64,000 nt of DNA, from the NCBI GenBank assembly GCA_963808625.1, contig CAWEHK010000049.1, positions 1-64,000 of the forward strand. Reading direction: 5' to 3'. The DNA is from an uncultured delta proteobacterium. Lineage in GTDB: Bacteria > Desulfobacterota > Syntrophobacteria > Syntrophobacterales > Syntrophobacteraceae. Both the position numbers and the translations under genes were made by a program. The stretch's first letter is position 1. The number at the start of each line of letters is the position of its first letter. The notes under the pieces were generated by a model, which saw only the letters and a program-made list of their open reading frames with translations, ran no database searches and was not told where the DNA came from. Shown one piece after another: positions 30 through 16,575 of the stretch.

Positions 30-2739
30 CTACCAGGACTCGGAGAGCTTCTCGACGACATCCTTCCTTGCCAGGACCCGCGAGCAAAGCTCCCAGCGGT
101 TCTTGTCGGGGTCGATGGTCTCTTTGTAGCGGAGCTCGAATACGTCACGAGCCTTTTGCCGGAGATGGATGTATTCGTCCATCATGGCTTCGAGGCGCTC
201 AACGTTCTCGATCCAGTCATCTTCGATGGTGTCGGGGAGGCCGCCGAAGATGTCGAACTTGTCTTTCAACCTTCGCGAGAGGACCTGATAGATCTTCTCG
301 TCCTGGGTGTCGTGGTAAACGAGGTTGAGCATGTCCACGGTCGTCTCGCCTGGCCAAAGCGTTTGATCCGCCCGAGGCGCTGCTCAAGTCGGGAAGGATT
401 CCATGGCAGGTCCACGTTGATAAGCGTTCCCAGGGTTTGGAGGTTGAGACCCTCACAGGCGGCGTCCGTGGCGACCACAAGGCGAATGCTCCGGTTCTTG
501 ACCGCCTTCTTGATCTCTTCACGATCGACTGAAGCGAAGGCGTCGCCGCGGAAGATACCGCTCTTCCCCGCGCCGGCATAGACGCCTATGGGTTCACTCT
601 CCAGAGACCGAGCCAACTCCGAAGCGATCCAGAAGACGGTGTCGTAATACTGACTGAAGATGATGCATCCGTGCTCCAGCCAGGTCTTTCCCTCGGTCCG
701 ATGCGCAGTGAGGAAAGAGTTGACAGCCGCCAGCTTTGGATCCCGCGCCTCGGGGCGCGAAAGCTCTTCGATGATCGTGCGCAGATGACCCGCTTCGGTC
801 GGAGTCAGTGCGCTCAGGGGCTCAACGGGTAAACGTGTGTCGTCGTCATCTTCCAGCGTCTCGCCTCGCAGCATCTTCTCGGCGGTGGCTCTGCCCGAGG
901 CAAAACTTGAACAAATGCGTTGAAGCAGCATCGTCTTCATGAATCCTGCGGCCTTCGTGCGCTGCTGCAAAGCGGCGGTGAAGGCCTCGGCAGCCTTGTA
1001 AGCCAGATCGAAGGGGTGATTGGTGAGCAAACCCAAGCCCTCGAAACTCACGCCCGGATAGGCAACCGGTGGGCCTTTGGGGTTCGGGTGGATGTCCACT
1101 GCGACCCTCTCCAGCAGGCCGGCTTCTTCCAGGGTCTGGCGACGGCGGAGAATCGGTGTGGCGAACAAACGGATTGTGCTCCCGGTAGAATGCCGGCGCG
1201 AGCGTCTCCCCTACCGCTTGCTGCTCAAAGAAGCCAAGTGACCCAAAACCTCTGTCGGTGAAGAAGGCGTTGTCCGGAATGCCGAGCTGCAGGCGCAGAC
1301 TGGCGAAGTTGGGATCTTCTTCGCCCGGAGGGAGGGGATTGCGCAGCCACTCCCAGGCATCGCGTTCGTCGGCTGGGGTTTCATCGCCTTTGACGACCGG
1401 CAGCGCCTTCTGCCAGTCCACCCATTTGCTGAGCGTCTCCCGGCCAAGGACAAAGTCCCCGCCGGCGTTGAGAATCCGCATGAGGTCCCACAGCTCAGAA
1501 ACCTCGGTCTGAATGGGTGTGGCCGTGCCCAGCAGCAGATTTTTCGTGCGGGGGCCGATGTGCAGCATGAAGTCAAGCAGGTTATTGGGCTCGGCCTTCT
1601 TCCTGTCGCCAAGGCCGCCCCGGCGGCGGGCTTTATGAGCTTCATCGAGGACCACGGTGCCGAATTTCCGCTCCAGCAAGAAACGCTGCTCTTCTGAGTG
1701 ATGAAAGATCAGTCCTGTGGAGACAATGGCTATTCGGAAGGGGCAGCGCACGATGTCCTCCGGACCCCGCGTTTTGATGGTGTGGCCCTGGTGGTCCAGC
1801 CAGACCTTCTTGGTGGAGAGCCACACCGCGCTGGGGATGCCGAGTTTGTCCTTGAGCTCCACCTGCCACTGGAGCGTAAGGGTCGACGGACAGAGGATGA
1901 GGACCGGCCCATCATCGAGCAGCGCGGAGACCATGGCGCTCGCGGCAAGGGAGAGCGTTTTCCCGACGCCCACTTCATCAGCCAGCAAGCAGCCGGGCTT
2001 TGCCGTAAGTCTCACGGTGTTTGAGAAACATCGTGACAAAGGCCCGCTGCCACGGCTGGAGCTGCTCACCGCCCCGGTAGATGGGGCTTTCGACAAGCGC
2101 AGCAGCGGGGAGTTCCTCCGGTCTCAGGTCTCCGAAGTGGATCTCGACACGGTCGGCAACGCGCTTGATTTCGTCGACGATGGCGTCCGGGAGTGGGAAG
2201 GAGTCCTTCCAGAGCGCCTCGAACTCCTCCTCGACCCAATCCACGCCCTCTGGTGAAGGGTCTTCCCAGAGGATTTCGTAGTTCTGTGCGAAAGCACTCC
2301 TGGTCTCGTTGATGGAGCCGAGGAAGCAGGTCTTGGAGCCGTCCGCCAGTTCAATGACGCCCGCCTTGCCGTGGATGAAGACGCGGTCTTTGGGGACGAC
2401 ACGAATCTCGACCCGGCCGCTGGTCAGCAACTCATGGAGTTTGCGGTAACGGGCGCGGTGCAGCAGGGCTTCGACTTCAGCCGGGGCTTCATTCCAGCGC
2501 TCCTTCAAGGCCGTCTCGCGAACGTGCTTCGAGACGGCCACATCGGCGGCGTCGAGTTCACTGTTGCAGACGATGCGGACGTGAGGAATGTCGGCGATCT
2601 CTTCGCCCACCAGTTCGAAAATGGAGCTGCGAAAATAGCCGGCAATGCGCTTGTAGGACTTCGCACCCTTGAGCTTCGCCGCGAGGAAGGCGTGGTCCAG
2701 GCGTTGGCGTCGCGAGGAGAAGCGGTTGATGATGGTCAT
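30..2739 (-). CDS. PLD-nuclease / SNF2 helicase fusion of a restriction-like (Gao RL type) anti-phage system; split by frameshifts near 1980, 1180 and 335
   Basis: Consecutive ORFs 1978..2739, 846..2096, 266..1168 and 30..338 give a PLD-like HGK...GSIN motif, LLADEVGVGKT Walker A, LDEAH Walker B and TDAACEGLNLQ...PWNPSRLEQRLGRI helicase C motifs. Confidence 0.9.
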
Positions 2740-2805
2740 GTCGGGTTTGTCCGGTTTATGTCGGGTTGGAGAATAGGCTTCATGCCATGTCTGCCCTTGA
2801 CCTAA

Positions 2806-2874
2806 GGCATTTGGGTCATTCCTGAGGCAATTCCGTTCCCGTTGCGCTGGGGCATTTGGGTCATTCCTGAGGCA
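2806..2874. repeat. 24-bp direct repeat GGCATTTGGGTCATTCCTGAGGCA, two copies
   Basis: Identical copies at 2806-2829 and 2851-2874. Confidence 0.9.
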
Positions 2875-4306
2875 TTTTCAGCGCGATCACGTAATGCACC
2901 CCTCGGCCTTTCCCACGCCTCTCGAACAACTTCTCTTTGACCAACTGATCAAGATCCCGAGTCGCAGTCTGACGGCTGGCGCCCGTCAGCACCTGGTAAT
3001 CTGAGCTGGTGATGCGCCTGTTGTCTCTAACATAAACAATCCCTTGTTTTTGCCTCTCATTCAGCCCCAACTCATCCATAACCGCCTTCGTCAGCCAATC
3101 CCGCCGGAGTGTCTGCACGAACTGCCCGCCGTCCTGGCGGAACTCGGGCTCCGGAAGCCCCGCCTCGCGGCAGAGGGCGATCATATCGAGGATGCCGCTG
3201 CCGGCCTTCTCCACGTAACGGGCCAGGAACATGGGTTCGCAGATGAGCGGGTTGTGCGGAATCGAGGCGTGAGGCACACGCAATTGTTCAATGGTCAGCG
3301 GCGGCGGCAGTTCACCGGGATTCCAGACCTCCAGCCGATCCGCAAAAAGCATGACCTGTACGCTGGCGTTGCTGGTGTAGTCACGGTGCGCCACCGCATT
3401 GACTATCGCTTCCGCCACAGCCTCGCGAGGGAACTCATAGTCGACCGGCGCCTCCGGTCCCTGTGCACGGGTTCCGACGGCGCGGGTGACCTTGGACATC
3501 ACAAAATCCACGGCCTGATCCACCAGGTCGAAGACCGTCCCCTTGTACACCTGGTAGGAAGGGATCGGCTTGCGCACCTCAGTGCCGTGGAAGTGCAGGC
3601 ACTTGACTTCTGACGACAGCAAGAATCGCTGGGGATTACTGCCAAACAGCAGAACAGCGGCGTGTGTGGGGTGCCCGGTGTCGAGCAGGCCTAAATGGGT
3701 GAGTGCCTCTCTCGGCGGCGTATTTACCGCCAGCGCGAATTGCCGTTCCTGGCGTGCACGCCCCAGAAACCAGTGCACCTTGTCCTCCGAGATGTCGGCC
3801 AATGTTGCCTCGGGACAGGCGGAGGCGTCGAAAGGTTTGGTGCGGAGCACCCCTGTTCGTTCCAGGTGCTCGACCAGGCTGGCATAAAGGGCAGCGGTCA
3901 GTTCGGGGATACTGCCGAACCGGCGGCGGATGAGCTGGCTTCCCGCTTTGCGGATCAGCGCCTGCAGCTTGGGATGGCGGGCTTTGTCGTCGGCGCCTTT
4001 GATGAAAATCAGCCGGGTCTTGCCGCGGTTCGTCGCTCGGTTAAACTCCCGCTCCGTCGGGGAGACGCCTTCTGCGTCTTCAAAACCGTAGTCTTTGCCG
4101 AACAGGCCCACATAAACCGAGCAGCGATCCACCTCGTCAAGATAGACGTCGTCGGCTCGACGGTCGCTGGCGGGCAAATCCTCAAACAGGAATGCGGTAA
4201 AATAGCGGCGCAGGAGCGGGTCACCTTCGACGAAGGCCTTCACCGCCCGGCGCTCCGCTTCCAGTTCCTTCTGCACGCTGCTGACAAAAAGGGACGCAAT
4301 TGGCAT
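2861..4306 (-). CDS. DUF4062 + RecG-C-like ATP-binding (HATPase_c_4) + winged-HTH protein; true 3' end may extend to about 2736
   Basis: N-terminal LFVSSVQKEL...YVGLFGKDYG (DUF4062), EAIVNAVAHRDY...DRLEVWNPG...VEKAGSGI, and C-terminal SRQTATRDLDQLV HTH. Confidence 0.85.
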   Translation of the reverse strand: MPIASLFVSSVQKELEAERRAVKAFVEGDPLLRRYFTAFLFEDLPASDRRADDVYLDEVDRCSVYVGLFGKDYGFEDAEGVSPTEREFNRATNRGKTRLIFIKGADDKARHPKLQALIRKAGSQLIRRRFGSIPELTAALYASLVEHLERTGVLRTKPFDASACPEATLADISEDKVHWFLGRARQERQFALAVNTPPREALTHLGLLDTGHPTHAAVLLFGSNPQRFLLSSEVKCLHFHGTEVRKPIPSYQVYKGTVFDLVDQAVDFVMSKVTRAVGTRAQGPEAPVDYEFPREAVAEAIVNAVAHRDYTSNASVQVMLFADRLEVWNPGELPPPLTIEQLRVPHASIPHNPLICEPMFLARYVEKAGSGILDMIALCREAGLPEPEFRQDGGQFVQTLRRDWLTKAVMDELGLNERQKQGIVYVRDNRRITSSDYQVLTGASRQTATRDLDQLVKEKLFERRGKGRGVHYVIALKMPQE

Positions 4307-4323
4307 CGATTGATTCCTTGTTC

Positions 4324-7300
4324 TCAGCCCAGTCGCTGGTTCTTCACCAATTCGCGCAGAACCCGAGCGGCGCTTGCTTCCTCGGGGCGGATGGTTTCGA
4401 GCTTCTTCGCCAGGTAATCGGCCAGTTCCACGACGCGGTCACGCTGGGTCGTGTTGCCGTAATAGTCAGGTACGTTGAAGGTGAGGTGGGCGAGCACTTC
4501 AGTGCCATCCACATCTTTCACCAGTTCCATCAAGGCGTAAAGGACGGCGCGAAGCACCGACTGGTGCAGCTCGGAGCCCTCGGACATCTCCGTCCGTCCG
4601 AACTCGACCGCGCTCTTGAGCCGTGCGTGATTGGCCTTCTGGCTGCCCATGAGGGCGCGAAAATCGCGGACTTTGAAGGCCTTGGCGAAGTTCTGGTAGT
4701 TATCCAGCGTCTTGAAGCCCTTGGCTTCGAGGTCAAGGAGCTTGAGGTAGAACCGCTCCGCGCCGCTGAGCTCCTTCCAGTGCTTCTCGGGTATCCCTTG
4801 CGGGACGAGGCACTGGTTGGCGGTGTCCACGGCAAAGGCGATCAGCTCGTCCACAAAAGTGGTCTCGCCTTTGACGCGCGGGCGGATGGCCTCGGTGGTC
4901 ATGTCGCGGCCGTCAATGATGGCGTACCGGGTGAGCACGCGCAGCGCGGCGGCGTAGCCGGCCATCTGGAGGTCGGCGTCCTCGAAGACGTTTTCGTCGC
5001 GGTAAAGGCCCCGAGCTTCCTGGTTGAGCCCGGTGAGGGTGCGCACCTGTTCTTCCACTTCCTCCTGGATTTCCCACGCGAGGTCGTCGCGGGTGGTCTT
5101 GTGCGTACCCTGGCGCTTGCGGACAGACGAGAAGCACGGTGCCTTTCACATGGCTGCCCTTCGCGCAGGGCACTCTCTGTCTCGGTGGCCACATACCACG
5201 CTGCGGTGACCTGCAGGCCGGAGGCCCAGACGATGTTCGCCATGTCCGCCCAGATGCTCCCGGACTGGTGGGTAAACATGATGACCTGGATGCCGTTGTC
5301 CGGCATGCATCTCGGTCATCCGCTTGTAGGCCGCCACCATGCCCCGGCGGAAATCCTCGCCATCACCCTTGATGGCGAGCGAGCGGCGGCTGTCCCAGAC
5401 CCAGTCGGCGAACTCGGGCGGCGGGTTCTTGCGCAGCCAGGCGATGAAGAACTCGAGGATCTCTTCGTACTTTACCGCATCGCCGTAGGGCGGGTCGGTG
5501 ATGAAGATGTCAGTATCCTCAGTGATGGCGCTCGCGTCAGTATTGCTTACGATTGTGGTCTGCCAGCTTTCAGACGGAAATGTCTTGTATCGAGCCTTGC
5601 GATGCATTGAAAGACTATAGCGAGATGCTCGGCAGCCATAGTTAAAAGCGTGTTCAGAGCTTGGTTGTCGAAAACCTGCTTCACTCCACCGCTGCGGCCA
5701 TCGCCATCGCCGAGGCTCCAGCGAGTCAGCCTCGCGCTTGTAGTTCAACACCTGTGCCAACCCAAACTTCAATTGTGCATCGCTGAAGCGATTCACCAGC
5801 CCGCCACCAACAGTTGCCGCGGGTTGAACAGATGATGCCAGTACGTCCAACCGCGCGCTCGAATTGGTTCGTCGGTCTTGGCGCCCGGTTCGATCCGCAT
5901 ATCCGGGAATCCAGCCCTTTTCCTGCCAATCAGCCAGATGTCGGCGACGAACTCCTCGACCTTGCGTTCGCGATCAGGTCTTCGGTCGTGACAGCACGGA
6001 ACTCGTAATCGTCGCCTTTCCCTTCTGCTTTCGGCCGCATCCAATGGATGCAGTAGAGGCGCTCCTGGAAGATATCGTCAGGTCGGGGCTTGAAATCGTG
6101 CTTCTCCCACAGCCGAAGCGGTTGCCAGTTGTCCCGTCAGGTTTCGCGATAGTCCCCGCGCAGTGTTGAGATCTTAGTCCGGTAGTCTGTGCCATCCACG
6201 TGATGGATCAAGATATGGGTCTTGCCCTCGCCCATCGCGACCGAACGGTACCCCGCTTTGCGGCAAGCTTCATTCTCTTCGCAAACCCGGATGCGGATCT
6301 GCGATATCGTAACGCTTCGTCACTGGGTCTGGTATCAGCTCTACGATCACCCGATGTCCTTTGCTGATGAGCAAGGTCGGCAAAAGCGGCACCATCCAAC
6401 CCGTCTGCGGGCAGCGTGCTTCCACGCAGTAGAGAAAGACCTTGGCGCGCCAGCCATTGCCGTCGGTCTCGACGCCGAGCCTATCGATCTCGGCCTGCAC
6501 CTCTGCAACCAATTCCCGTTGCTGCTGTGCGAACTTCGTCGCGACTCTCCGGCGACCCACCAACTATGTGAAAGGCACCCCAGGTGAGCATGCAGGCCAC
6601 CGGGTTGAGGTCGGAGGCATAGACGTCGCAGCCGAGCCGTGGCGGCCTCGAACGGAATCTGACCGGAACCACAGAAGGTGTCGGCTACGCGCGGGCGATG
6701 GCCAAAGCGCATGATGCCGAGTTGCTCGACCAGCTCCGGGAATGAATGCGCGCACGTGCCGAGGTGAGCGTTGACGGCATCCCAGATATGGTCGTGGACA
6801 GTATCCATGACTTCCTCGGGCCGTTTGGCTTTTTCCACCCGCTCACGGTAGGACACCTTGGGCAGCATCTGTGCTTCCAAGCCGGCGGCGCTCCAGTTCG
6901 GAAAGATCCTCGCGCCAGGCGACTTTCACCTGCTGAATATTCGGGGTTCGACCAGTCGATCGGGTGCCGACTCGGCAGGAACCGATGCGGCGTACACGGT
7001 GAAGTAATCGGTGATGCGGGCGATACTGAGATCGTGGCAAGGATCTCCTTCGGCTTGCGGGCGGCGCGTCCAGCGGGCGACGAAAGACTCGTCGTCCATG
7101 GCCATGAGCTTCTCGAATATTTCGAGGTCGCGTGTTGAGGTCGTCTGTCGCGGGCAGCAGACAGCCCAGGATGCAGGCTTTGTTCAGGATGAGCGGCTTG
7201 CGGCCTTTCCAGTAGCTGCCCAATGCGGTGAGCGTCTTGCCCTGCACCGCCATCTGCTCCTTGTAAGCCTCGGCGGAAAGCTTCTGGACAGGCAGGAGTC

Positions 7301-7355
7301 GCTCGATGAAAGCGGGGGCATCCTTGAGAGAATATGGTGTAACCGATACAGTCAT
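4324..7355 (-). CDS. DUF1156 amino-methyltransferase of the restriction-like system; many frameshifts
   Basis: Fragments 6843..7355 (LPVQKLSAEAYKE...LTALGSYWKGRKPL), 6347..6880 (DTFCGSGQIPFEA SAM-binding motif), 5146..5850 (FITDPPYGD catalytic motif) and 4324..5058 (C-terminus). Confidence 0.88.
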
Positions 7356-7367
7356 GTCGCTTCCTGT

Positions 7368-8207
7368 GTAGGGGCGACCGGCCGGTCGCCCCTACGGATT
7401 GTGTCTGTTGGTTGCCTCTGCCGATAGTCTAATCGGGTCGTCTGCACCGATTGTGGTGAATTGTCATTCCCAGGGGTTGGTCTGATGGGTCGTCCCGGAC
7501 CTGGGATTCTCGGGATCGATGTCCCATTGCAGGGGGTTGTTCACGATGTATTCTCGTATACGATTCAAAGACACCTCATCGCGGATGATGTGTTCGTAGT
7601 AATTCCTTTGCCAGACAGGGACTCCAGGCATTCGTCGCAGTTCATTGATCCGTTTCGTAACAGCGGATTTGAAACCAGAAACAAACGAGGGCAACGAACG
7701 TCCGGCGGGGCTTGTAGGGGCGACCGGTCGGTCGCCCCTACCTTTTGCGAACACGTCCCTACCATTTGCGAAGGGTTGCCTGGCTGGTTGTGTTGGAGGG
7801 TCCGGTTTGTCACCCATAGCGTTTGCTAACGGGTGTTTGGTCGTAGGGGCGACCGGCTGGTCGCCCCTACAATCGACAATGTGAAGAATGCCGTGGATAT
7901 GATTCGGCATAACCACAAATACATCAAATTCCATGTTCTTCCGAATGTCCCCAGACTTTTTCCATTCATCCGCCACAATTTCACCGAACGCGTTCAATAC
8001 GACTCGATCTGTTGCCACCTCGCCAAACAGACATTCCCGCATGTGGGAAACCATCGTCACGAAATATGCTCCCTTCGATGAATAATCATATCCTTTCAAC
8101 CGTATGGACCGGCGATGATGTTTCTCCCTATCGAATCTCTCCACGATGTATCCTCCCACCATTTGCGAATGCATGTTTGGTAGGGGCGACCGGCCGGTCG
8201 CCCCTGC
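7368..8207. repeat. Four 28-bp GTAG-type REP palindromes GTAGGGGCGACCGG(C/T)(C/T)GGTCGCCCCT(A/G)C
   Basis: Copies at 7368-7395 (perfect palindrome), 7714-7741, 7843-7870 and 8180-8207; two flank the RAYT gene and two lie inside it. Confidence 0.95.
7464..8144 (-). mobile_element. REP-associated tyrosine transposase (RAYT/TnpA-REP, IS200-like HUH)
   Basis: HHRRSIRLKGYDYS..GAYFVT, VVMPNHIHGI (HUH) and WQRNYYEHIIRD...IREYIVNNP; probable GTG start at 8144 with GGAGGA at 8151-8156. Confidence 0.92.
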
Positions 8208-8248
8208 ATGCCAACCAACGTCTGGTCGTCCCCACCGTTAAATGGGCA

Positions 8249-8830
8249 TCATTGGTTCCCCCTGAAAAGCGATAGTTGGATGGGATTTGATTCAGGTTCC
8301 ACCGGTCGGGGGCGCTTCTTGCGAGTGGGTGTCTTTTCGCCGTCCGAGAGGGCATGAAACAGAGCACGGCGCCAGCCGCGCTGAGTGTCCTCGGGGAGCC
8401 CTGCCTCGGCCACGGTCATGGAGAAGAGCCACCAGCGCTCCTCGGGGCGAAGCGCGGCCCACTTGCTGCAGATGATGGGAAGTTGCTCGGCAGTGGCCGT
8501 CTCGGCGGCCCAGGCGAGGACGCAGAGTTCCTTGCCGAGGAGGCGGTCCACGAGGTTAACGCCGGTGTGCCAGCGGCCGGTGGGGATTTTGGCGGCCTTG
8601 AGCCGGCCGTTGAACTCGCGCCGGGCGATGTCGGCAATGCCTGACCAGATGGGGCGCAGCAGAATAACACGCTCCTCGTCTCGGGGGATGCCGCCTTCGA
8701 GCCCGCGATAGCCATAATCTTCGATGATGCGGACGGGTTCGCTCCTGGCCGCCGGAATCTCGACGCGGAAGACGTGCGCACCGAATGTCTCCGGTGCGCC
8801 GAAGTCCACGGTCTTGATGGTCTCGTTCAT
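8249..8830 (-). CDS. DUF3780 protein of the restriction-like system
   Basis: VDRLLGKELCVLAWA...WAALRPEERWWL...RGWRRAL motifs; start overlaps the DUF499 stop. Confidence 0.9.
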   Translation of the reverse strand: MNETIKTVDFGAPETFGAHVFRVEIPAARSEPVRIIEDYGYRGLEGGIPRDEERVILLRPIWSGIADIARREFNGRLKAAKIPTGRWHTGVNLVDRLLGKELCVLAWAAETATAEQLPIICSKWAALRPEERWWLFSMTVAEAGLPEDTQRGWRRALFHALSDGEKTPTRKKRPRPVEPESNPIQLSLFRGNQ

Positions 8831-11800
8831 TGCTCGACGTCTCCCTGTTGGAGCCCGATGCCGAGCTTCTCGGCAAAGTCCTTGAGGTCGTGGCCGGAGG
8901 CGAAGTGTGCTTTGCGGAAGGTCATGGTGACAGGAGTGTCGGGTTCGAACTTTTCCAGCACGGTTTTCAGGATAGCCTCGATGAAGGCAGCGTTCACCTG
9001 GATTTCGCCAACCATGACCTGCACCGCCTGCGTGCCCTGACCGACCGTGAGGGTGACGTTCTCGAAGGCTACGGATTTCTCGGCGGCCTGTTTGAGGCCC
9101 TCGAAGGTTTTAGGGCGGGAGTCGAGCTTGCGACCGATGCGCGAAACGAGGCGGCAGGGCTTTACGTCGTCAATCTGAACGCCTTTCTTTCCCCTCGCCG
9201 GAAAACGGAACTCCTCTTTCGCTTCGAGCCCGTCGGCTTCGGCGAAGACCCAGAGCAAGACATCGCCGTCGCCGATTTCGACAGGTTTGTCGTAGACTGT
9301 TCCTTCGCGGGGCTCACTGCCATCGAGAGTGTAGCGGATGCGAGCCTTTGGGCGCGACGAAAAGCTCGACCGTGCGGTTGCCGTCTTTTTCGGAGAGGTA
9401 ATTGCGCAGCGACGAGCTTGTTGGACCAGGTGACCGGGTCGCCAGTCTCGTACTGGCCGGAAGGATCCACGACGAGGAAGTTCACCCGGAGGGCTTTGGT
9501 GGTGAGTGACTGGTCCTTGAGCTGCGGGCTGGACTCGGTGACCGGGGCATCCTCGGCGTAGTGGATGCGCGGCGCGGGACCGGCATTCTGGGGGTTGATC
9601 CGCAGGCGGACCTTGCCTTCGTCGTCCGGTTCGGATTCGGTGATGACCTGGACGGAGGTGCTCTTTTTCTTCGGCTTCTTGGTGACGTAGCCATTGCCGA
9701 GATCTTCCCAGAGGCCGCGGTTGCAGGCGATGGACTTGAGGCTGTCGAGCCCCTTGGGAGGGAGCCAGGGCATGCCGGCCTGCTCCATGTAGCGGTCTGC
9801 GGCATCGGTCCAGCGGGCCTCGTCCTGGTTTTCGGGCCAGAGGAGGTCCTGAGCCTTATCGCGGATGGGGTCGAAATCCTTCTCGACATCGAGATAGAGC
9901 TTGAGCGGGTTCGACGTGAGCGTCTTCTCGATCTGCTCCTCGCCGTTGAAGGGCTTGGTGGCATCGCGGGTCATGTCGAGCGCTTTGGGCGCGAGCTGCG
10001 ACGGCCTGCCGGCGCGCTGGATGGGAAAGAGGACCTTATCGAACAGGCCAAGGATGGTGGCGTTGAAGTCTTGTTCGTAGGTTTGCTGCTTCTTTTCCAG
10101 GTCTTCACGCTGGGGGTGGCCTTTGGGGATTCGGCCATCGGCTTTCTGGGCCGCAAAGAGCTGGCGGGCGGCCTTCTCGACGCTACCCATGGCGGTCTTG
10201 TCGCCGGTGAGGACGCAAAGGTTGTTCTTCTGGCTGAGACCCTCGAAGAACTTCTGGACCTCCTCGGGCGGAATCTTCGAATCGGGGCTGACGATGAGCA
10301 GCACCCGGCCTTTGCGGACACGGTCGGCAACGTCTTCGAGCTTGGGCAGCGGGAGGACTTCCTCGTAGACGGTCTTGCGAGCAGGCTTGAACATGTCTCT
10401 CAGGCGATGGCGGATGAGATCATCCACCTGGTTTTCCGGTGCGTCATGGGCAAGGCTCTGGAGGAGTTTGGTGAGGTTCTCCTGCCGGTCGAAGTAGTAG
10501 CGGCCCTCCGGGGTGTGATGGAGATACCAGGCGGACTTTTCCAGCTCCTCGAAGGCGGCGAGAAATTCGGACGGCTCGCGCAGCGGCGAGATGAGGCACT
10601 CGACCATCTCCTCGCGGGTGAGGCCTTTTACCGCGTTGACGGCGGTGGAGAGGCTGGCGGTGAGCAGCAGCGCGCCCACCTGGGTGGCCGCTTCCTTGCC
10701 GGTGCTGCAGATCGATGATCTGGGCGTGCGCCGACTGGTTGCCGTCCCAGAGGTCCTTGGCGATCACATCGCGCATGCCGGAAATCTCGGTGAGCTTGTC
10801 GCGAACCTCGGGGATGGAGAGATCGAAGTGCTGCGGGCCGATGAGAAAGACGTCGTTGGCCTGGCGCTCCCAGACGGAGCGAAGGAGGCGCGAAACCAGC
10901 TCGATGAGGCCGCGCGTCTGCTTGAACTGCTCATTCTCCTTGAAGAGGGCGATGACATTCTTGAGGCGCGGATGGAACGGGTAGGTGGCGGCGATTTCGT
11001 CGGCGATGGCTTCGGCGCCGCGGTTGGCGACTTTGGACTTGCTGGCTTCTTCCAGCTTCTTGCCATAGGCGGCGGCGATGTCGGCAATCTCCGCTTGGTC
11101 GGGCATGGCTTCGAAGAGCCGCTTGCGGAGGATGTCATAAATTTCATTGGCGGCGAGGTCGACGGGGGTGATGTTGCGCTCCTGCCGGCCGAGTTCCTGA
11201 CGGGCGTCTTGGAGGGCGCGATTGATGAGCCTGATGCCGGTGTCGTAGGTGGCCGCGAGGTCGGAGACCACGACGCAGACGTTGGTCTTCTTGCCGGCCG
11301 CGGTGAGGAGGTTGGCGAACGCGCGCGTGGCGATATCGGCGACGGTCCCGTTGCCGACCTTCTGGGTATCGAGGTAGTGAAAATAAGGCGGCATTTCATC
11401 GAGCAGGATGAGGATGGGCTCGTCACCTTCGAAGAGCTTCAGCCAGTCCTTCTCCTCGGGCGCTTTGGGACCGGCCGTCCAGAGCGCCTTGAACTGGTCG
11501 CCCTTGCCGAGTTGGTTGGCGATTTCGCCCCAGAAGAAGTGGTCGGGATTATTGCGGCCATTGAAGGCGGCGATGTTGGCGACGGCGAACGAATCGGCGT
11601 GGCGGATTCCGCCGCAGTAGTGCTTGCGAAGTTCGGGATGCCTGGCGAGAAGGCCGAAGCCGACGAGCAAGTGGGTCTTGCCGCCGCCCATCGCCTGCTT
11701 CAGGTGGAAGACGGCCTGGGTGGAAGCGCCGGCGAGCCGGGCGATGCCTTCGCTGATGAGGTCTTGCATGCCCTGGGTGATGTGGGTCTTCTTGAAGAAG

Positions 11801-11914
11801 GCCGTACCGTCGCCTTCGTCGTTGATCAGTTCATCGAGTTGCTCGATCTGATCGCTGAGTTTGATGGAGAGCGCGTTGGGCTGGAGTATCGCAGGCGTCG
11901 CGGACGGTCTTCAT
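8827..11914 (-). CDS. DUF499 AAA+ ATPase of the restriction-like system; frameshifts near 11890, 10700 and 9400
   Basis: LKQAMGGGKTH Walker A, ILLDEMPPY Walker B, YPFHP and FKQTRGLI; fragments 10444..11769, 9162..10679 and 8827..9258; reconstructed start MKTVRDAC at 11914 with upstream GAGGA. Confidence 0.9.
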
Positions 11915-12284
11915 GAATCATTTCCTCGTGCAGCTCGGGTTATCCACTACAGCAATTCTGCAAGTTGATTGTGGCGAAACGATTTGAAGGCCATGCGATG
12001 ACTCCCCGGAAGCACTGCTCATTACCGCTGCGTTCTGCCATGGCCAAGCTTCAGTCATGGCAGTGTAGCACGAATTGCTTGTTGCAGCATAACAGCAAAC
12101 CTTCTCAGAGGAATCCCGCCGTTGCCGTCCGTTTGCTCAGGAACTTTACAACCCAGGACGCCCGCTGAAATCCTGCCTCTTTCCTCTGCCTCTGAGGCAA
12201 TGGCAGAGCTGCAGTGAAATGATTATCGTTTGGTATGGGTCGGTTCGACCCGATTTTCACCGAACACGAAAGGTGGTGTTTAAC

Positions 12285-12587
12285 ATGGAAGAAAGCAAAC
12301 TTCACCGCACGGACTACCGGACACTCATAGATCTTGCGCGATCCCGGAACATCAATTGTGTGGAAGCCCGTGGGTTGGATACGCGTAGAGGGATTCGCTT
12401 TCGGCAGAGCACGTCCGAGTGGATTGCCGTGGATGCCGACCTGCCTGTCGAGGAGAAGATCAGAACGTTGGGCTTTCTCTTGGAGAATGAGCCCGTAGAA
12501 ATGGCAGAGAAAGCCGGAATAACGAGCGACTTTTCCGGGGCCGGCTCGATGATACCCGTGCTCACCCTGTGCTGCCCGTCACACTGA
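12285..12587 (+). CDS. Small hypothetical protein ending in CCPSH
   Basis: ORF 12219..12587 with a plausible start at MEESKLH (AAGGTGG upstream); no family recognised. Confidence 0.5.
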   Translation: MEESKLHRTDYRTLIDLARSRNINCVEARGLDTRRGIRFRQSTSEWIAVDADLPVEEKIRTLGFLLENEPVEMAEKAGITSDFSGAGSMIPVLTLCCPSH

Positions 12588-12704
12588 TCGATGAGCTGCT
12601 GCCGGGCCCTTGAGTATGTTGCGATGAATCACCACGGGTGCTCATAAAAGCTAAATGATTACCTTCAGTTAAAGGAATGTAGTTGGGAAACGGAGGTGAT
12701 TGGC

Positions 12705-13019
12705 ATGAATGCCTGCGAAATTCCGACGCCGGAGATGTTTTCAAGAGCGATACACCTCCGCACGAACGGAAGTGAGCTCACCTTTGAGGATGCCAGAAAA
12801 GTTGCCTACGAGCGTGCCAGAACCTATGGCAGTGAGCCGATGCTGCTGAGCTGGTTTGAACGAAAGAGTGGGTCCTATTTTCCAAGTGTTGCTGAGTGCT
12901 GCCAGAGAGGCCAACCGACCTGGGTCAGTTACGCCCGGTCGCGAGGCGGGGACCTGACCATAGACATCAATGATGAAGATTACATCTTTATCTTCAGAGG
13001 TCAGCAAGGTTTAAGCTGA
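12705..13019 (+). CDS. AF1514-like (DUF5619) small protein
   Basis: EPMLLSWFER...ECC...PTWVSYARSRGGDLTIDINDEDYIFIF pattern; GGAGG upstream. Confidence 0.7.
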   Translation: MNACEIPTPEMFSRAIHLRTNGSELTFEDARKVAYERARTYGSEPMLLSWFERKSGSYFPSVAECCQRGQPTWVSYARSRGGDLTIDINDEDYIFIFRGQQGLS

Positions 13020-13969
13020 AGACGTTGCGGCCACATGGGGTCGTTAGCCATATCCCGTGTGGCCATTCTATTCTCTATGAGCAGTTTGCTGTTTGTGCAC
13101 GTCTTCAAACCAAAGTGCTGGGCTATTGATCGCCAGCGATGGTCGACTTTGTCACCGCTGAAAATGGTGGATTTTGAGGCAACGCCTAGCACCTAAAAGC
13201 CAGTGGATACGGGGTGAATCCTCCGCCCAGACAAGGGGATGCGGTCTGGTTTGCGATAACCATGAGGCCAAAGAGAAATTCCTGCTTTGACGAAGGAGTA
13301 AGGCACAATAGCCCATAACGGTTTCCTTGAGCCGAAAGGAAGAGGACTTGGCTGACAGTTTTGATTTGGACTTCAATTGATAATACTGTTGAAAGTTGTA
13401 GCGGGTCTGTAGTGAGGGGGCGTCTGCTCTGCGCTTCCCCCACGCGCTCAGGCATGCATTTTCTCTGCAATCTCTTCTTATTCTTCCCGGTTCCGCGTGT
13501 TGGAAACTGTCTCCCAGAAACTTCTTGTCAAATAACTCAGCATAATATATTGAAAAAACGAAGCGATGTGGAACGAAGCACAGGAGCAGAGGCAAGTCGT
13601 CCGATGACGAGGATACCAAACATACCCCCATGCTCTGGGGTTATCCAGAAACGGCAAACTTTCTCGTTAGGGTGCGATACAATGTCGTATCGTTGGGTTT
13701 GCTCAGCTGCCGACCTGGAGCACCCGGCATGTTCCTGCCAGTTCCTACGCAGGAGTACTACCGACGTGCTGATGAGGGGTGCTAAGCCCTGCGTACAAAG
13801 TACCGAATCGGGTTTAAATGTTGACAGGAGGATCCCTCCGGAAATCCTCCCCGATTAAGGGCCAGGGACGGGGTGATAGCCTGAAAGTAATTTAATGCCC
13901 GTAAGCGTCCTCAGGCGAGTGCGGATCTACCTGGATTAACCAGCGGTACTGGCGATACCGGAACAAGTC

Positions 13970-14330
13970 AGCGCGCCGATGCCGCCCCTGATTAAGAAGC
14001 TTAATGCAACGCTTCGGGGTTGAGCTGACTACTAACGCCGCGTGGTGGCCTCGGAAGCTTTAGGTCGTATTGACGCCTATGTCTTTGAGCAACTCTGGCG
14101 TACGATACACCGACGGCACTCTACGAAATCCGCTAAATGACTGACTGAGCAATACTGGTCGGCTGCTGGAAAGAATGTATTTGCCGTCATATCCAAGACC
14201 GCTAAGACTGGCAGGAAAGTCTGCCAGATCCTGCGAGTGAGCGCCAGGGGATCCGGTGGTATGTGAATATCAAAGCTGGCGCTAGCTAGTCCTTATCTCC
14301 TCGATCACGCCGACTACTTCTGTCATCGCC
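13970..14330 (+). pseudogene. Group II intron maturase (domain X) remnant
   Basis: Hand translation LIKKLNATLRG*ADY*RRVVASEALGRIDAYVFEQLWRTIHRRHSTKSAK*LTEQYW; in-frame stops sit at normally conserved W/Y positions. Confidence 0.85.
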
Positions 14331-14472
14331 GGGACAAGCAGAATAGTAACCTGCTGATGGCCATGTCGGCTCGGGAATTCCTGGCTATGGCTTCGTTTTA
14401 TGAGGCAACTCAGCTGCCCCACAAGGGGTGCCTTTTGAGATGATCGAGGCTTGTGACGAGAAACTGTCACGT

Positions 14473-14625
14473 GGGGCGTCTAAATTGGCTCTGGAAACTT
14501 TCCCAGTTTTTGGACCCCCAAATTTCCGGCTTAGTAACCCGCCACATCTTCGCTCAGGAGGATTTCTCGGGGGCCAAAAGCCGGGCAACGAAATTGGGGT
14601 GATTTTGGCCCTTTTTAGACGCCCT
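14473..14625. mobile_element. 153-bp MITE inserted in intron domain V
   Basis: Terminal inverted repeats GGGGCGTCTAAA / TTTAGACGCCCT; 11-bp target duplication AACTGTCACGT at 14462-14472 and 14626-14636. Confidence 0.92.
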
Positions 14626-14720
14626 AACTGTCACGTATCGTTCCGAGGGGGAAAGGGACTGTGAGACACCCTGACCTACCCGATACCTATAAGGAACTAT
14701 CGGTAAGTAAGGAGGGAAAT

Positions 14721-16229
14721 ATGATTCATGGTGGGGTGGGATACATTAGAAATGGGAAGCTTTTTGTTCCGCACGAACTCCTCAAGCCTTTGTCGATTTT
14801 TCACCAGACGAGTTTATTTGGGATTTACTATCCATCGAAATATGAGTCTTGTTCTATGCGCCACTGTTTCGTTTTTAGTCCAATACCACATCGTCAATGG
14901 CCAAGCATTGGCAGGTATGTCATTAGATTACAACACAAACGACACGCTATAAATGCAATTACTAATTTATTATCCGAGTTAAACATTTCAATATTATTTT
15001 CAGACGCTGTTAGATCGGGATACAGATTCGACACGTGGAATCTAACTGTTTCTTTTGAGGACATAGCTGAAGCTGACAAACTGTATTACGAAACTAATGA
15101 ATCAATATATAAAGAAGCATATGAAAAGATAAAAACAACAAAGTGTATTATCGAAGACCAATGCCATGAGGTTCTTTTTAGAGATGAGAAAGACATTCAA
15201 CTCAAGGACTCAGTTATAGATATTCCTCATACGGCACTACCCTATTTTCATCAAGAATCCTTATTGCGAGCTAGCGACAGTAACAAAGACGCATGGATTT
15301 ATAGGCCATTCTCTGTCGAATATGATCAAAATGCTAATGCGCTATACTCAGATGACGAAATAATACATTCTATAACTGAGCATATATCTACATCGGCCCA
15401 TTGTGTGACAGAAAGTGTAATATTTATAAGCACAGATATAAGAGATGTAACTATACGAACCGCATTATTATCGACAAACTATCTAAGCCATCTTATTGAA
15501 GCAAATTATACTTATGAGCGAAGAGGTATGCCTCACACAAGCAGAGGGATATTGGCGCACGTATTAAGTCAGCTTCCAGAATATTTTATTCTTTGGAAAA
15601 TGACAAATCGGACAAGAACGAGTTCTGTTCACATGGAGCGGGGATCGACGTCATTCATAATTGAGGACGCAAGACCAGATTCAACTAATGTCCTTCAATT
15701 AGCGCAGGAGAGGTTCAACAAGATTAAAGATTCATCAATGCCATCAGGAATGGAACATCTTCGCATTGTAAGTGTGAATGTAAGGCCATTGTCCATAGCC
15801 CGAATGGTATCTCAACTTGAAACTAACAAACTAAGCCACGGCTACGACGTATTTATTAGCTACAGCAGTGCTGATATGCATCTTGCAGAAAAATTGCAGA
15901 ATGCACTTAAGGATGAAGGCCTCTCATGCTTTATGGCTGGCAAGGAACTCAAAGCTGGCGATGTATTTTCCGAAAAAATAAGAAGAGCACTTCTTGAATC
16001 TAGGGAGATATGTATATTATTTACTCCTAATTCAAAAAACAGCGAATGGGTAATGACTGAGTGGGGCGCTGCTTGGGCACTTGACAAGGTAATAATTCCA
16101 ATACTCTATAGAACAAGCCCAAGTGACCTTCCAGAAAGGCTTAGGTCTCTGCAGAGTATAGACTTTCATCAGTTGAAAGACTATGTTTTTGAAGCGGTCA
16201 GTCGACAAGAAGAACAAAGTCAGAGTTAA
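14721..16229 (+). CDS. TIR-domain protein with a long N-terminal region (putative tandem ACT-like domains); AT-rich
   Basis: AGGAGG RBS before ATG 14721; C-terminal YDVFISYSSAD...FTPNSKNSEWVMTEWGAA...IIPIL TIR_2 motifs. Confidence 0.88.
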   Translation: MIHGGVGYIRNGKLFVPHELLKPLSIFHQTSLFGIYYPSKYESCSMRHCFVFSPIPHRQWPSIGRYVIRLQHKRHAINAITNLLSELNISILFSDAVRSGYRFDTWNLTVSFEDIAEADKLYYETNESIYKEAYEKIKTTKCIIEDQCHEVLFRDEKDIQLKDSVIDIPHTALPYFHQESLLRASDSNKDAWIYRPFSVEYDQNANALYSDDEIIHSITEHISTSAHCVTESVIFISTDIRDVTIRTALLSTNYLSHLIEANYTYERRGMPHTSRGILAHVLSQLPEYFILWKMTNRTRTSSVHMERGSTSFIIEDARPDSTNVLQLAQERFNKIKDSSMPSGMEHLRIVSVNVRPLSIARMVSQLETNKLSHGYDVFISYSSADMHLAEKLQNALKDEGLSCFMAGKELKAGDVFSEKIRRALLESREICILFTPNSKNSEWVMTEWGAAWALDKVIIPILYRTSPSDLPERLRSLQSIDFHQLKDYVFEAVSRQEEQSQS

Positions 16230-16575
16230 CCACCGGCATGGCCGGTGTCTTGCCTGGGCCTATAATGGAGTTGGTAGCAGCATCCGTCCAGAGGGATACT
16301 GGGCTTTGTCCAAAAATTTGACCATCTTGCGACCAATATTACCTACTTCCTCCGCTTTTGTTCCATGGTAACCCGCCCCCCTTAGAATCGGTTACTCTGT
16401 CTTTTCCTGATCTTGAGCGCTTTCTTACTCTTGCCTCACCCAAGTCCTCGGTACGCACGCCGTAACCGCAAGCCGAAAAGCTGTGACCTTTGAAATCTTT
16501 CTTCTGACTACTGTCCTTCTCGAACACAGGTGCATTACTCGGTTGCTACAGACTGAACGCCGATGATCAACGGTG

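Follow-up and report, generated by a model that had tools for sequence, protein, structure and literature searches.

The window analysed here is a stretch of 64,000 nucleotides from an uncultured delta proteobacterium of the Syntrophobacteraceae (assembly GCA_963808625.1, contig CAWEHK010000049.1, positions 1 to 64,000). It contains, on the forward strand, a gene for a 502-residue protein in which a predicted N-terminal module of AbrB-like and ACT-type units precedes a C-terminal TIR domain. The gene and the features upstream of it are as follows.

269-11916, minus strand: operon of DUF499, DUF3780, DUF1156 methyltransferase and PLD-helicase genes (profile matches)
12219-13019, plus strand: two small ORFs between the operon and the intron, one of 122 aa, unassigned, and one of 107 aa (DUF5619)
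13615-13671, plus strand: degenerate attC-like site recognised by eye, its core GTTAGG just before the intron
13672-14684, plus strand: decayed group II intron (Rfam and copies in the genome), separated from the start codon by 36 nt
14473-14625, no strand assigned: small inverted-repeat element in the 3' part of the intron (repeats)
14710-14715, plus strand: AGGAGG, resembling a ribosome-binding site (sequence)
14721-16229, plus strand: gene for the 502-aa protein, predicted order AbrB-ACT-(AbrB-like)-ACT-TIR (ORF, homologue alignment and model with mean pLDDT 85.7)
14721-14894, plus strand: AbrB/MazE-like unit 1, aa 1-58 (profile-profile comparison with hhalign)
14898-15236, plus strand: ACT domain 1 with an insert, aa 60-172, motifs H-x-P-G, S/N-I and R-S-G-H-R-Y (fold match)
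15303-15476, plus strand: probable second AbrB-like unit, aa 195-252 (read from the topology of the model)
15486-15794, plus strand: ACT-like domain 2, aa 256-358, motifs S-R-G-L and N-I-W (fold and motif)
15843-16211, plus strand: TIR domain, aa 375-497, with the E447 codon at 16059-16061 (Pfam, fold and alignment)

The reading frame is unbroken over all 502 codons, with no internal stop, and its start Met at 14721 is the same Met at which homologues begin. A GTG at 14661 was rejected as the start because it lies inside the end of the intron and homologues start at 14721. The GC content of the gene is 0.387 as compared with 0.557 for the genome, and only three of 3157 genome segments of the same size have a value of 0.395 or less; this AT-rich composition marks the gene as foreign-looking and bears out the first-pass annotation, which had called it a strongly AT-rich 502-aa ORF. 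Scanning for promoters and terminators near the gene gave results at chance level (five promoter-like sequences found versus 4.3 expected). Positions 16216-16253, which comprise the last codons and a hairpin after them, match a 38-nt stretch on contig C44 at 89% identity, and the 3' end of the gene may owe its present form to a repeat.

The gene stands alone, and the genes downstream of it are convergent and metabolic-looking. Approximately 3 kb upstream, on the opposite strand, lies the DUF499-DUF3780-DUF1156-PLD/helicase operon, a restriction-like system that we take to be Gao RL and of which our gene is not a part. The earlier description of the gene as near a defence operon holds only loosely: the strands differ, and two small ORFs and the intron relic stand between. 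Genes of the DUF499 operon were not found among the neighbours at homologue loci. Within the operon, the long genes are each split into several frames, and a Y1 transposase-like ORF (7464-8174) and a 481-aa ORF (2861-4306) are inserted; these many frameshifts may be assembly errors.

The intron is recognised by the Rfam model group-II-D1D4-7 at 13723-13862 (46.7 bits versus 34) and is 77-83% identical to stretches on contigs C24, C36, C41, C44 and C53. Its maturase frame is interrupted by stops, and the small element within it has 20-nt inverted arms and is flanked by an 11-nt direct repeat (14462-14472 and 14626-14636), with related pieces on contigs C30 and C50. No intron-less allele was found in the contigs of three runs, which gave scattered pieces only. 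With the intron set aside, the GTTAGG core would lie 36 nt upstream of the ATG, which resembles the start of a cassette (the integron core site is GTTRRRY). The five intron copies elsewhere in the genome start with TTGCG directly after attC-like cores and in cassette orientation; two of these five attC sites passed the strict script, and the rest were recognised by eye. The intron UHB.I2 is described as targeting attC sites, a description that the five copies match (PMC7923331, in the part of the text available). Integron integrases scoring over the cut-off are encoded on contigs C51 and C15. The attC scripts did not call the site upstream of our gene, nor did they find any attC after the gene within the window. 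We consider the odds about even that the gene is a relic integron cassette.

Domains of the 502-residue protein

Pfam TIR_2 (PF13676) matches residues 377-487 (E 6.6e-25, 88.4 bits against a cut-off of 28), and the model of this region matches the TIR structures 5uzb (Z 15.6, rmsd 2.9, 129 residues aligned), 6wt7 (Z 14.5), 7qqk (Z 12.5) and 9mud (Z 11.6). The residue at the catalytic position, E447 in W443-x3-E447, lines up with the second of the two Glu residues in the Roq1 sequence WCLEE and with the corresponding Glu of RPV1 and TIR-STING. It is conserved in all 95 members of an alignment of full-length proteins without long inserts, chosen from 159 sequences, and across three divergent TIR clades. 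As judged from these comparisons, the C-terminal domain belongs to the TIR superfamily and carries the helix C Glu of enzymatic TIRs with predicted NAD+ glycohydrolase activity.

Residues 1-60 have no direct Pfam match. In a profile-profile comparison, the first unit aligned with a profile of 30 PF04014 hits over 24 columns (hhalign E 1.2e-5, probability 81%), with a score of 26.1 versus a maximum of 10.1 over 25 column shuffles, and four other segments of the protein were negative in the same comparison. By this measure, residues 1-58 are a homologue of AbrB/MazE. AbrB and MraZ bind DNA. Across the 95 aligned family members, position 19 is Asp in 50, and the AbrB hairpin and helix have no conserved basic residue.

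Residues 60-172 adopt, in the model, the beta-alpha-beta-beta-alpha-beta fold that defines ACT domains (PF01842), and on fold they can be identified as such: the closest structures are the AHAS regulatory subunit 6wo1_B (Z 10.6, rmsd 2.0, 80 residues aligned) and NikR 3qsi_C (Z 10.2). The Pfam ACT match to our protein is weak (E 0.034, 14.4 bits against a cut-off of 27), and six of 58 homologues pass that cut-off. The second unit, residues 256-358, has its elements in the same order, with generic ferredoxin-like domains as its best matches (Z 8-10). Its glycine loop (G276 in 94 of the 95 aligned members) and its N-I-W motif (W292 in 89) resemble the H-x-P-G and S/N-I motifs of the first ACT domain, and in one family member (P0111) ACT-type profiles match the second unit. 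Tandem-ACT proteins (2nyi, GcvR 1u8s and SerB2 3p96) span both units over 167 residues at an rmsd of 5-8.

Between the two ACT units, a feature that had been overlooked on first reading, along with the attC and intron context, is a probable second AbrB-like unit. In the AlphaFold2 models (pLDDT 85.7 for the full length and 74.8 for the N-terminal part), a strand-strand-helix-strand-strand unit followed by an ACT-type unit occurs twice, and residues 195-252 have the same order of elements as unit 1. The model range 1-251 matches MraZ 1n0e over 112 residues (Z 8.0, rmsd 3.4), a Z level that the tool rates as common. No sequence signal was found for this second AbrB-like unit, including by hhalign against the PF04014 hits, and in an hhalign comparison of unit 1 with unit 2 as an internal duplication the scores stayed inside the shuffled range. 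We infer that the N-terminal module is a doubled AbrB-ACT unit, its descent being unproven. Searching solved structures with the N-terminal profile gave no match at E 10, and Foldseek of the N-terminal model against the PDB and viral libraries gave weak or partial matches only. In the ESM Atlas, archaeal ACT proteins of 300 aa at 0.76-0.77 for residues 1-365 provide a lead.

H-x-P-G and other glycine-type loops of ACT domains bind ligand. Such motifs are retained in both ACT units across the family and partly lost in our protein, which departs from the family consensus in having C49 for D and I290 for N and in missing the Pro-Gly at 74-75. It retains E447, W60, R98, R246 and G276, and its closest relatives (50-63% identity) depart from the consensus at 74-75 largely as it does. 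A small molecule is the likely ligand of the module; given that our protein is without the Pro-Gly of the first ACT domain, D49 and N290, its own ligand may differ. The AbrB-like start and the two ACT-like units, the first by fold and the second by fold and motif, had been proposed from the letters of the sequence, as had a C-terminal TIR retaining its Glu. All three stood up, and every sequence motif quoted at the time is present in the protein.

Family composition and genomic settings

The gene had also been called an orphan, a label it does not keep. A word search returned 25 matches among 7999 candidates, namely the window's own protein, 13 matches covering 72-99% of the length and 11 limited to the TIR. 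With clustering at 50% identity, a profile built from the N-terminal 365 residues of four sequences detected 322 clusters (E no higher than 0.001), of which 121 stand at 1e-30. The analysis covered the best 150 of the 322 clusters; proteins with other effectors, or ancestors without a TIR, may be present among the 172 weaker ones. Carriers include Bacteroidota, Planctomycetota, Verrucomicrobiota, Gemmatimonadota, Rhodothermota, Acidobacteriota and Alphaproteobacteria, with further names from Chloroflexi and Pseudanabaena. The family is rare and very patchy, spread over at least nine bacterial phyla: neither 40 relatives nor 400 genomes of the window's phylum yielded the gene, and among the relatives of two other carriers it occurs in one of 40 and none of 40, respectively. 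Scanning with a DNA pattern compatible with 63 of 159 family proteins gave 15 stretches in the genome collection, of which 13 are real and two (L092 and L096) were dropped as chance matches, and one in the viral collection. Plasmid and phage collections gave no matches by single-sequence tblastn.

We examined 163 sequences. Both ACT units are present, together with a tail of at least 100 aa, in 136 of them. The tails comprise 93 canonical TIRs, 35 of clade II, seven of clade III and one other, such that a TIR-fold domain is present in 135 of the 136; the exception, P0160, has an unassigned helical C-terminal domain instead. Eight further members stop short, two of them within a cut TIR and six after the second ACT unit (one of which has a 512-aa cluster mate), and the remaining 19 lack one ACT unit and are for the most part fragments. 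Pfam misses most of clades II and III. Their tails match the clade I TIR with probabilities of 95.7% and 98.0%, respectively, in comparisons of profiles built from the same set, and for the clade II tail the ESM Atlas gives TIR/NDT-like clusters as a lead, at 0.88-0.92. Because 135 of 136 members carry the TIR fold, the sensor module stays with TIR and is not shuffled among other effectors, which answers in the negative a question raised by the first-pass annotation. The AbrB-ACT module is thus obligatorily paired with the TIR fold.

In the 95-member alignment W60, R246 and E447 are invariant, and the conserved basic residues are R65, R98, R102, R246 and R267. The first AbrB-ACT stretch is conserved at least as much as the TIR domain (mean identity within clade I, 0.37 versus 0.325). 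Clades II and III are largely coherent on the N-terminal tree (four changes), a pattern equally compatible with in-place divergence and with replacement of the TIR. When set against 75 non-family TIRs picked by the motif of our protein, as a check for swapping with unrelated proteins, the clade I TIRs of the family interleave with them (11 changes, one of them forced by the starred branches). TIR domains 46-56% identical to that of our protein sit behind other N-termini (P0016, P0018 and P0019; precomputed PF06283 and PF08282), and none of 86 proteins with a similar TIR behind other N-termini carries the AbrB-ACT module. Longer fusions (764-2180 aa) were not seen among the 7999 candidates, which is weak evidence.

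The genomic settings were compared at 13 homologue loci with at least 6 kb of sequence, L005 and L087 being counted once, L086 and L088 being kin, and five shorter loci being excluded. The gene has a lower GC content than its locus in 17 of 18 homologue loci, with a gap of at least 0.05 in 10. By raw count, defence-type neighbours occur in four of the 13 loci. L085 (202-11357) is a defence island with genes for a nuclease, a TIR protein, GNAT, ThsB, SLOG-TIR, Nmad2, MazG_C, UDG and a serine recombinase alongside the family gene, which there belongs to clade II; L097, a viral contig, has NACHT and Mrr neighbours; L093 has PIN_8; and L082 has another TIR gene. Mobility signs are present in six (L083, L085, L090, L093, L095 and L097). 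Placement of homologues in defence islands, a check raised in the first-pass annotation, is thus only partial, and six of the 13 loci (L005/L087, L035, L086, L088, L091 and L094) show neither defence nor mobility signs. In L086 and L088 the family gene occupies the same site between OPT transporter genes, and in L088 a glutamine synthetase gene is next to it.

Sites resembling attC lie beside the family gene in L095 and L093, as judged by hits with at least 18 pairs that touch the gene end, the loose script having given many weak false hits. L093, from Bacteroidota, has over 2999-9256 an integron-like array consisting of a broken divergent tyrosine recombinase below the integron-integrase cut-off, the family gene, an attC-like site, a 392-aa gene, PIN_8, a 247-aa gene and a second attC-like site. 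No partner gene is common to unrelated homologue loci, and no cyclase was found among the neighbours in the window or the 154 neighbour ORFs scanned.

Comparison with known systems

The first-pass annotation did not recognise the architecture from any named system, and we agree. Pfam, PADLOC, NCBIfam and PHROGs gave TIR-only or weak ACT matches and none for the architecture, and a search of full texts, mainly of open-access papers, found no description of it; large supplementary tables of TIR proteins could still include members without their domains being named. The sensor-TIR family is conserved and real, and apparently undescribed. A recent systematic survey of TIR proteins set standalone ones aside, at least in the part of the text available, and this family therefore appears to fall in the gap (10.64898/2025.12.03.692087).

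The nearest comparisons are with TIR proteins that have a ligand-binding-type domain. TIR-STING (Cap12), TIR-SAVED, Cat1 and PycTIR likewise combine a TIR fold and a Glu at the catalytic position with such a domain, whereas the predicted sensor of our protein is of AbrB-ACT type and N-terminal, with no STING, SAVED, CARF or cNMP match, and no cyclase or CRISPR partner adjoins the gene. What marks a CBASS or Pycsar effector is a sensor domain (STING, SAVED or cNMP) together with a cyclase gene nearby; here, their profiles match the TIR part only. Swarozyc has the one-gene design predicted for our family and is likewise spread by transfer, with a TIR-like NADase (DUF4062) joined to a sensing domain, in its case portal-binding; as far as its available text describes, that sensor is instead a C-terminal HTH/winged domain, and DUF4062 has no match in our protein or 58 homologues (10.64898/2026.05.01.722283). 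Thoeris ThsB and ThcB4 share with our protein a TIR with a conserved Glu, and their profiles match its TIR domain with scores far below the cut-off, but Thoeris is an operon with a signal-sensing effector, and our gene, like the family gene in 12 of 13 loci, is without a ThsA-type neighbour.

The NCBIfam profile NF006352 (PRK08577), of 136 aa, has the same two-domain AbrB-ACT unit as our module: positions 5-48 of the profile pair with a MazE/AbrB protein, and positions 40-129 with ACT domains. The unit is single in NF006352, whereas in our family it appears doubled and is fused to TIR. NF006352 does not match our protein and weakly matches 19 of 95 family members on either ACT unit, mostly through its ACT half (best E 4e-8; all below 35 bits, with a maximum of 34, against a cut-off of 140). 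Since it also has matches in 12 of 14 control genomes, descent from NF006352 cannot be claimed. TRADD-N, which occurs in bacterial conflict proteins, is described as structurally related to ACT; it differs in being an adaptor, and the main text of that report does not mention AbrB or MraZ (PMC8195603). TRADD-N had no Pfam match in our protein or 58 homologues and was absent among the best 50 fold matches listed.

SARM1 offers a works-like analogy, since in it a metabolite-binding regulatory domain restrains a TIR NADase. It is eukaryotic and has ARM and SAM domains, and TIR alone is common to it and our protein.

Proposed function and alternatives

Known triggers of bacterial TIR enzymes are cyclic nucleotides, phage proteins and nucleic acids. 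We favor, with a probability of about 55%, the reading that the family is a self-contained, one-gene sensor-TIR NADase of anti-phage, or more broadly anti-mobile-element, defence. In this model, the two AbrB-like halves would probably close into one MraZ-like barrel serving as a scaffold, with the two ACT units as the sensing surface, and the resting N-terminal module would hold the TIR domains apart or blocked. Binding of a trigger to the ACT pair, or its loss from the pair, would change the assembly, presumably as an oligomer switch, such that the TIR domains align, E447 cleaves NAD+ and the infected cell stalls. TIR activation is reported to need oligomerisation, with accessory domains often sensing the trigger (10.64898/2026.05.01.722283, in the part available), and integron cassettes are reported, in the available part of another study, to hold defence genes (10.64898/2026.03.17.712381).

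Counting in favor of the one-gene defence reading are the TIR fold and the conservation of E447, the obligate TIR pairing, the conservation of the module, the glycine-loop motifs retained in both ACT units, the patchy spread, the foreign GC content, the defence neighbours and the attC sites. Counting against it are the six plain loci among 13, the shared site of L086 and L088, the lack of any swap to a non-TIR effector other than in P0160, the lack of plasmid or phage matches, the residue losses in our protein, a second AbrB unit without sequence support and the lack of an intact attC after the gene. If the one-gene model is right, we would give the trigger about an even chance of being a small host metabolite (an amino acid or a phosphorylated compound), somewhat less than a one-in-three chance of being a phage protein and a one-in-five chance of being a nucleic acid or something else.

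An improbable alternative is a metabolite-gated brake on NAD+ with no role against phage, in which the ACT pair would read an amino acid or another nutrient signal and the TIR domain would lower NAD+ to slow growth under stress. The nearest folds of the first ACT domain, which are ACTs that serve feedback regulation in AHAS, PGDH, aspartate kinase and RelA, would suit such a brake, as would the alignment of tandem-ACT proteins over both ACT units and the six of 13 loci among ordinary genes, including the one adjoining glutamine synthetase. Extreme patchiness and foreign GC content, however, suit conflict genes better than metabolic regulators, and no metabolic neighbour is common to unrelated loci. 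We find it more doubtful still that the protein is a ThsB-like generator, which on sensing infection would produce a messenger derived from ADP-ribose and so act through an effector encoded by another gene. In L085 the family gene does come after genes for ThsB and SLOG-TIR and shares their strand, and ThsB profiles match the TIR part, but those matches are TIR-only (35.6 bits against an NCBIfam cut-off of 220). Moreover, neither the window nor 12 of the 13 loci have a Thoeris-type effector gene beside the family gene, L085 being the one locus with such a gene nearby. A sensor of nucleic acid or a DNA-bound regulator, whose AbrB/MraZ barrel would bind DNA or RNA and cluster the TIR domains, has slimmer prospects again: the homology of unit 1 to AbrB/MazE and the conserved R65, R98, R102, R246 and R267, which suit an anionic ligand, speak for it, while the frequent Asp at position 19, the hairpin and helix without a conserved basic residue and the divergence of the second AbrB-like unit past recognition speak against it. 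Least probable is a functional family of which the copy in the window is a stranded cassette in decay, its sensor impaired. The lost family residues, the decayed intron and attC-like site upstream without an attC downstream and the lack of any promoter-like excess speak for this reading; a 502-codon frame that is intact despite the many frameshifts in the assembly, the retention of E447, W60, R98, R246 and G276 and the sharing of much of the 74-75 deviation with the closest relatives speak against it.

Returning to the one-gene defence reading, a narrower and tentative version, which we regard as unlikely as it stands, is that a doubled housekeeping-type AbrB-ACT unit guards metabolism: a primary metabolite shifted by infection, for example an amino acid, would be read by the ACT pair and turn on the TIR NADase. 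With an AbrB-scaffolded ACT pair as the sole input module, the family would allow a direct test of whether primary metabolite levels can trigger bacterial immunity. The candidate system comprises one gene, with E447 as a ready catalytic control and few invariant residues in the sensor. If true, the family would represent a bacterial immune receptor triggered through ACT domains by a central metabolite, that is, SARM1-like logic in a prokaryote.
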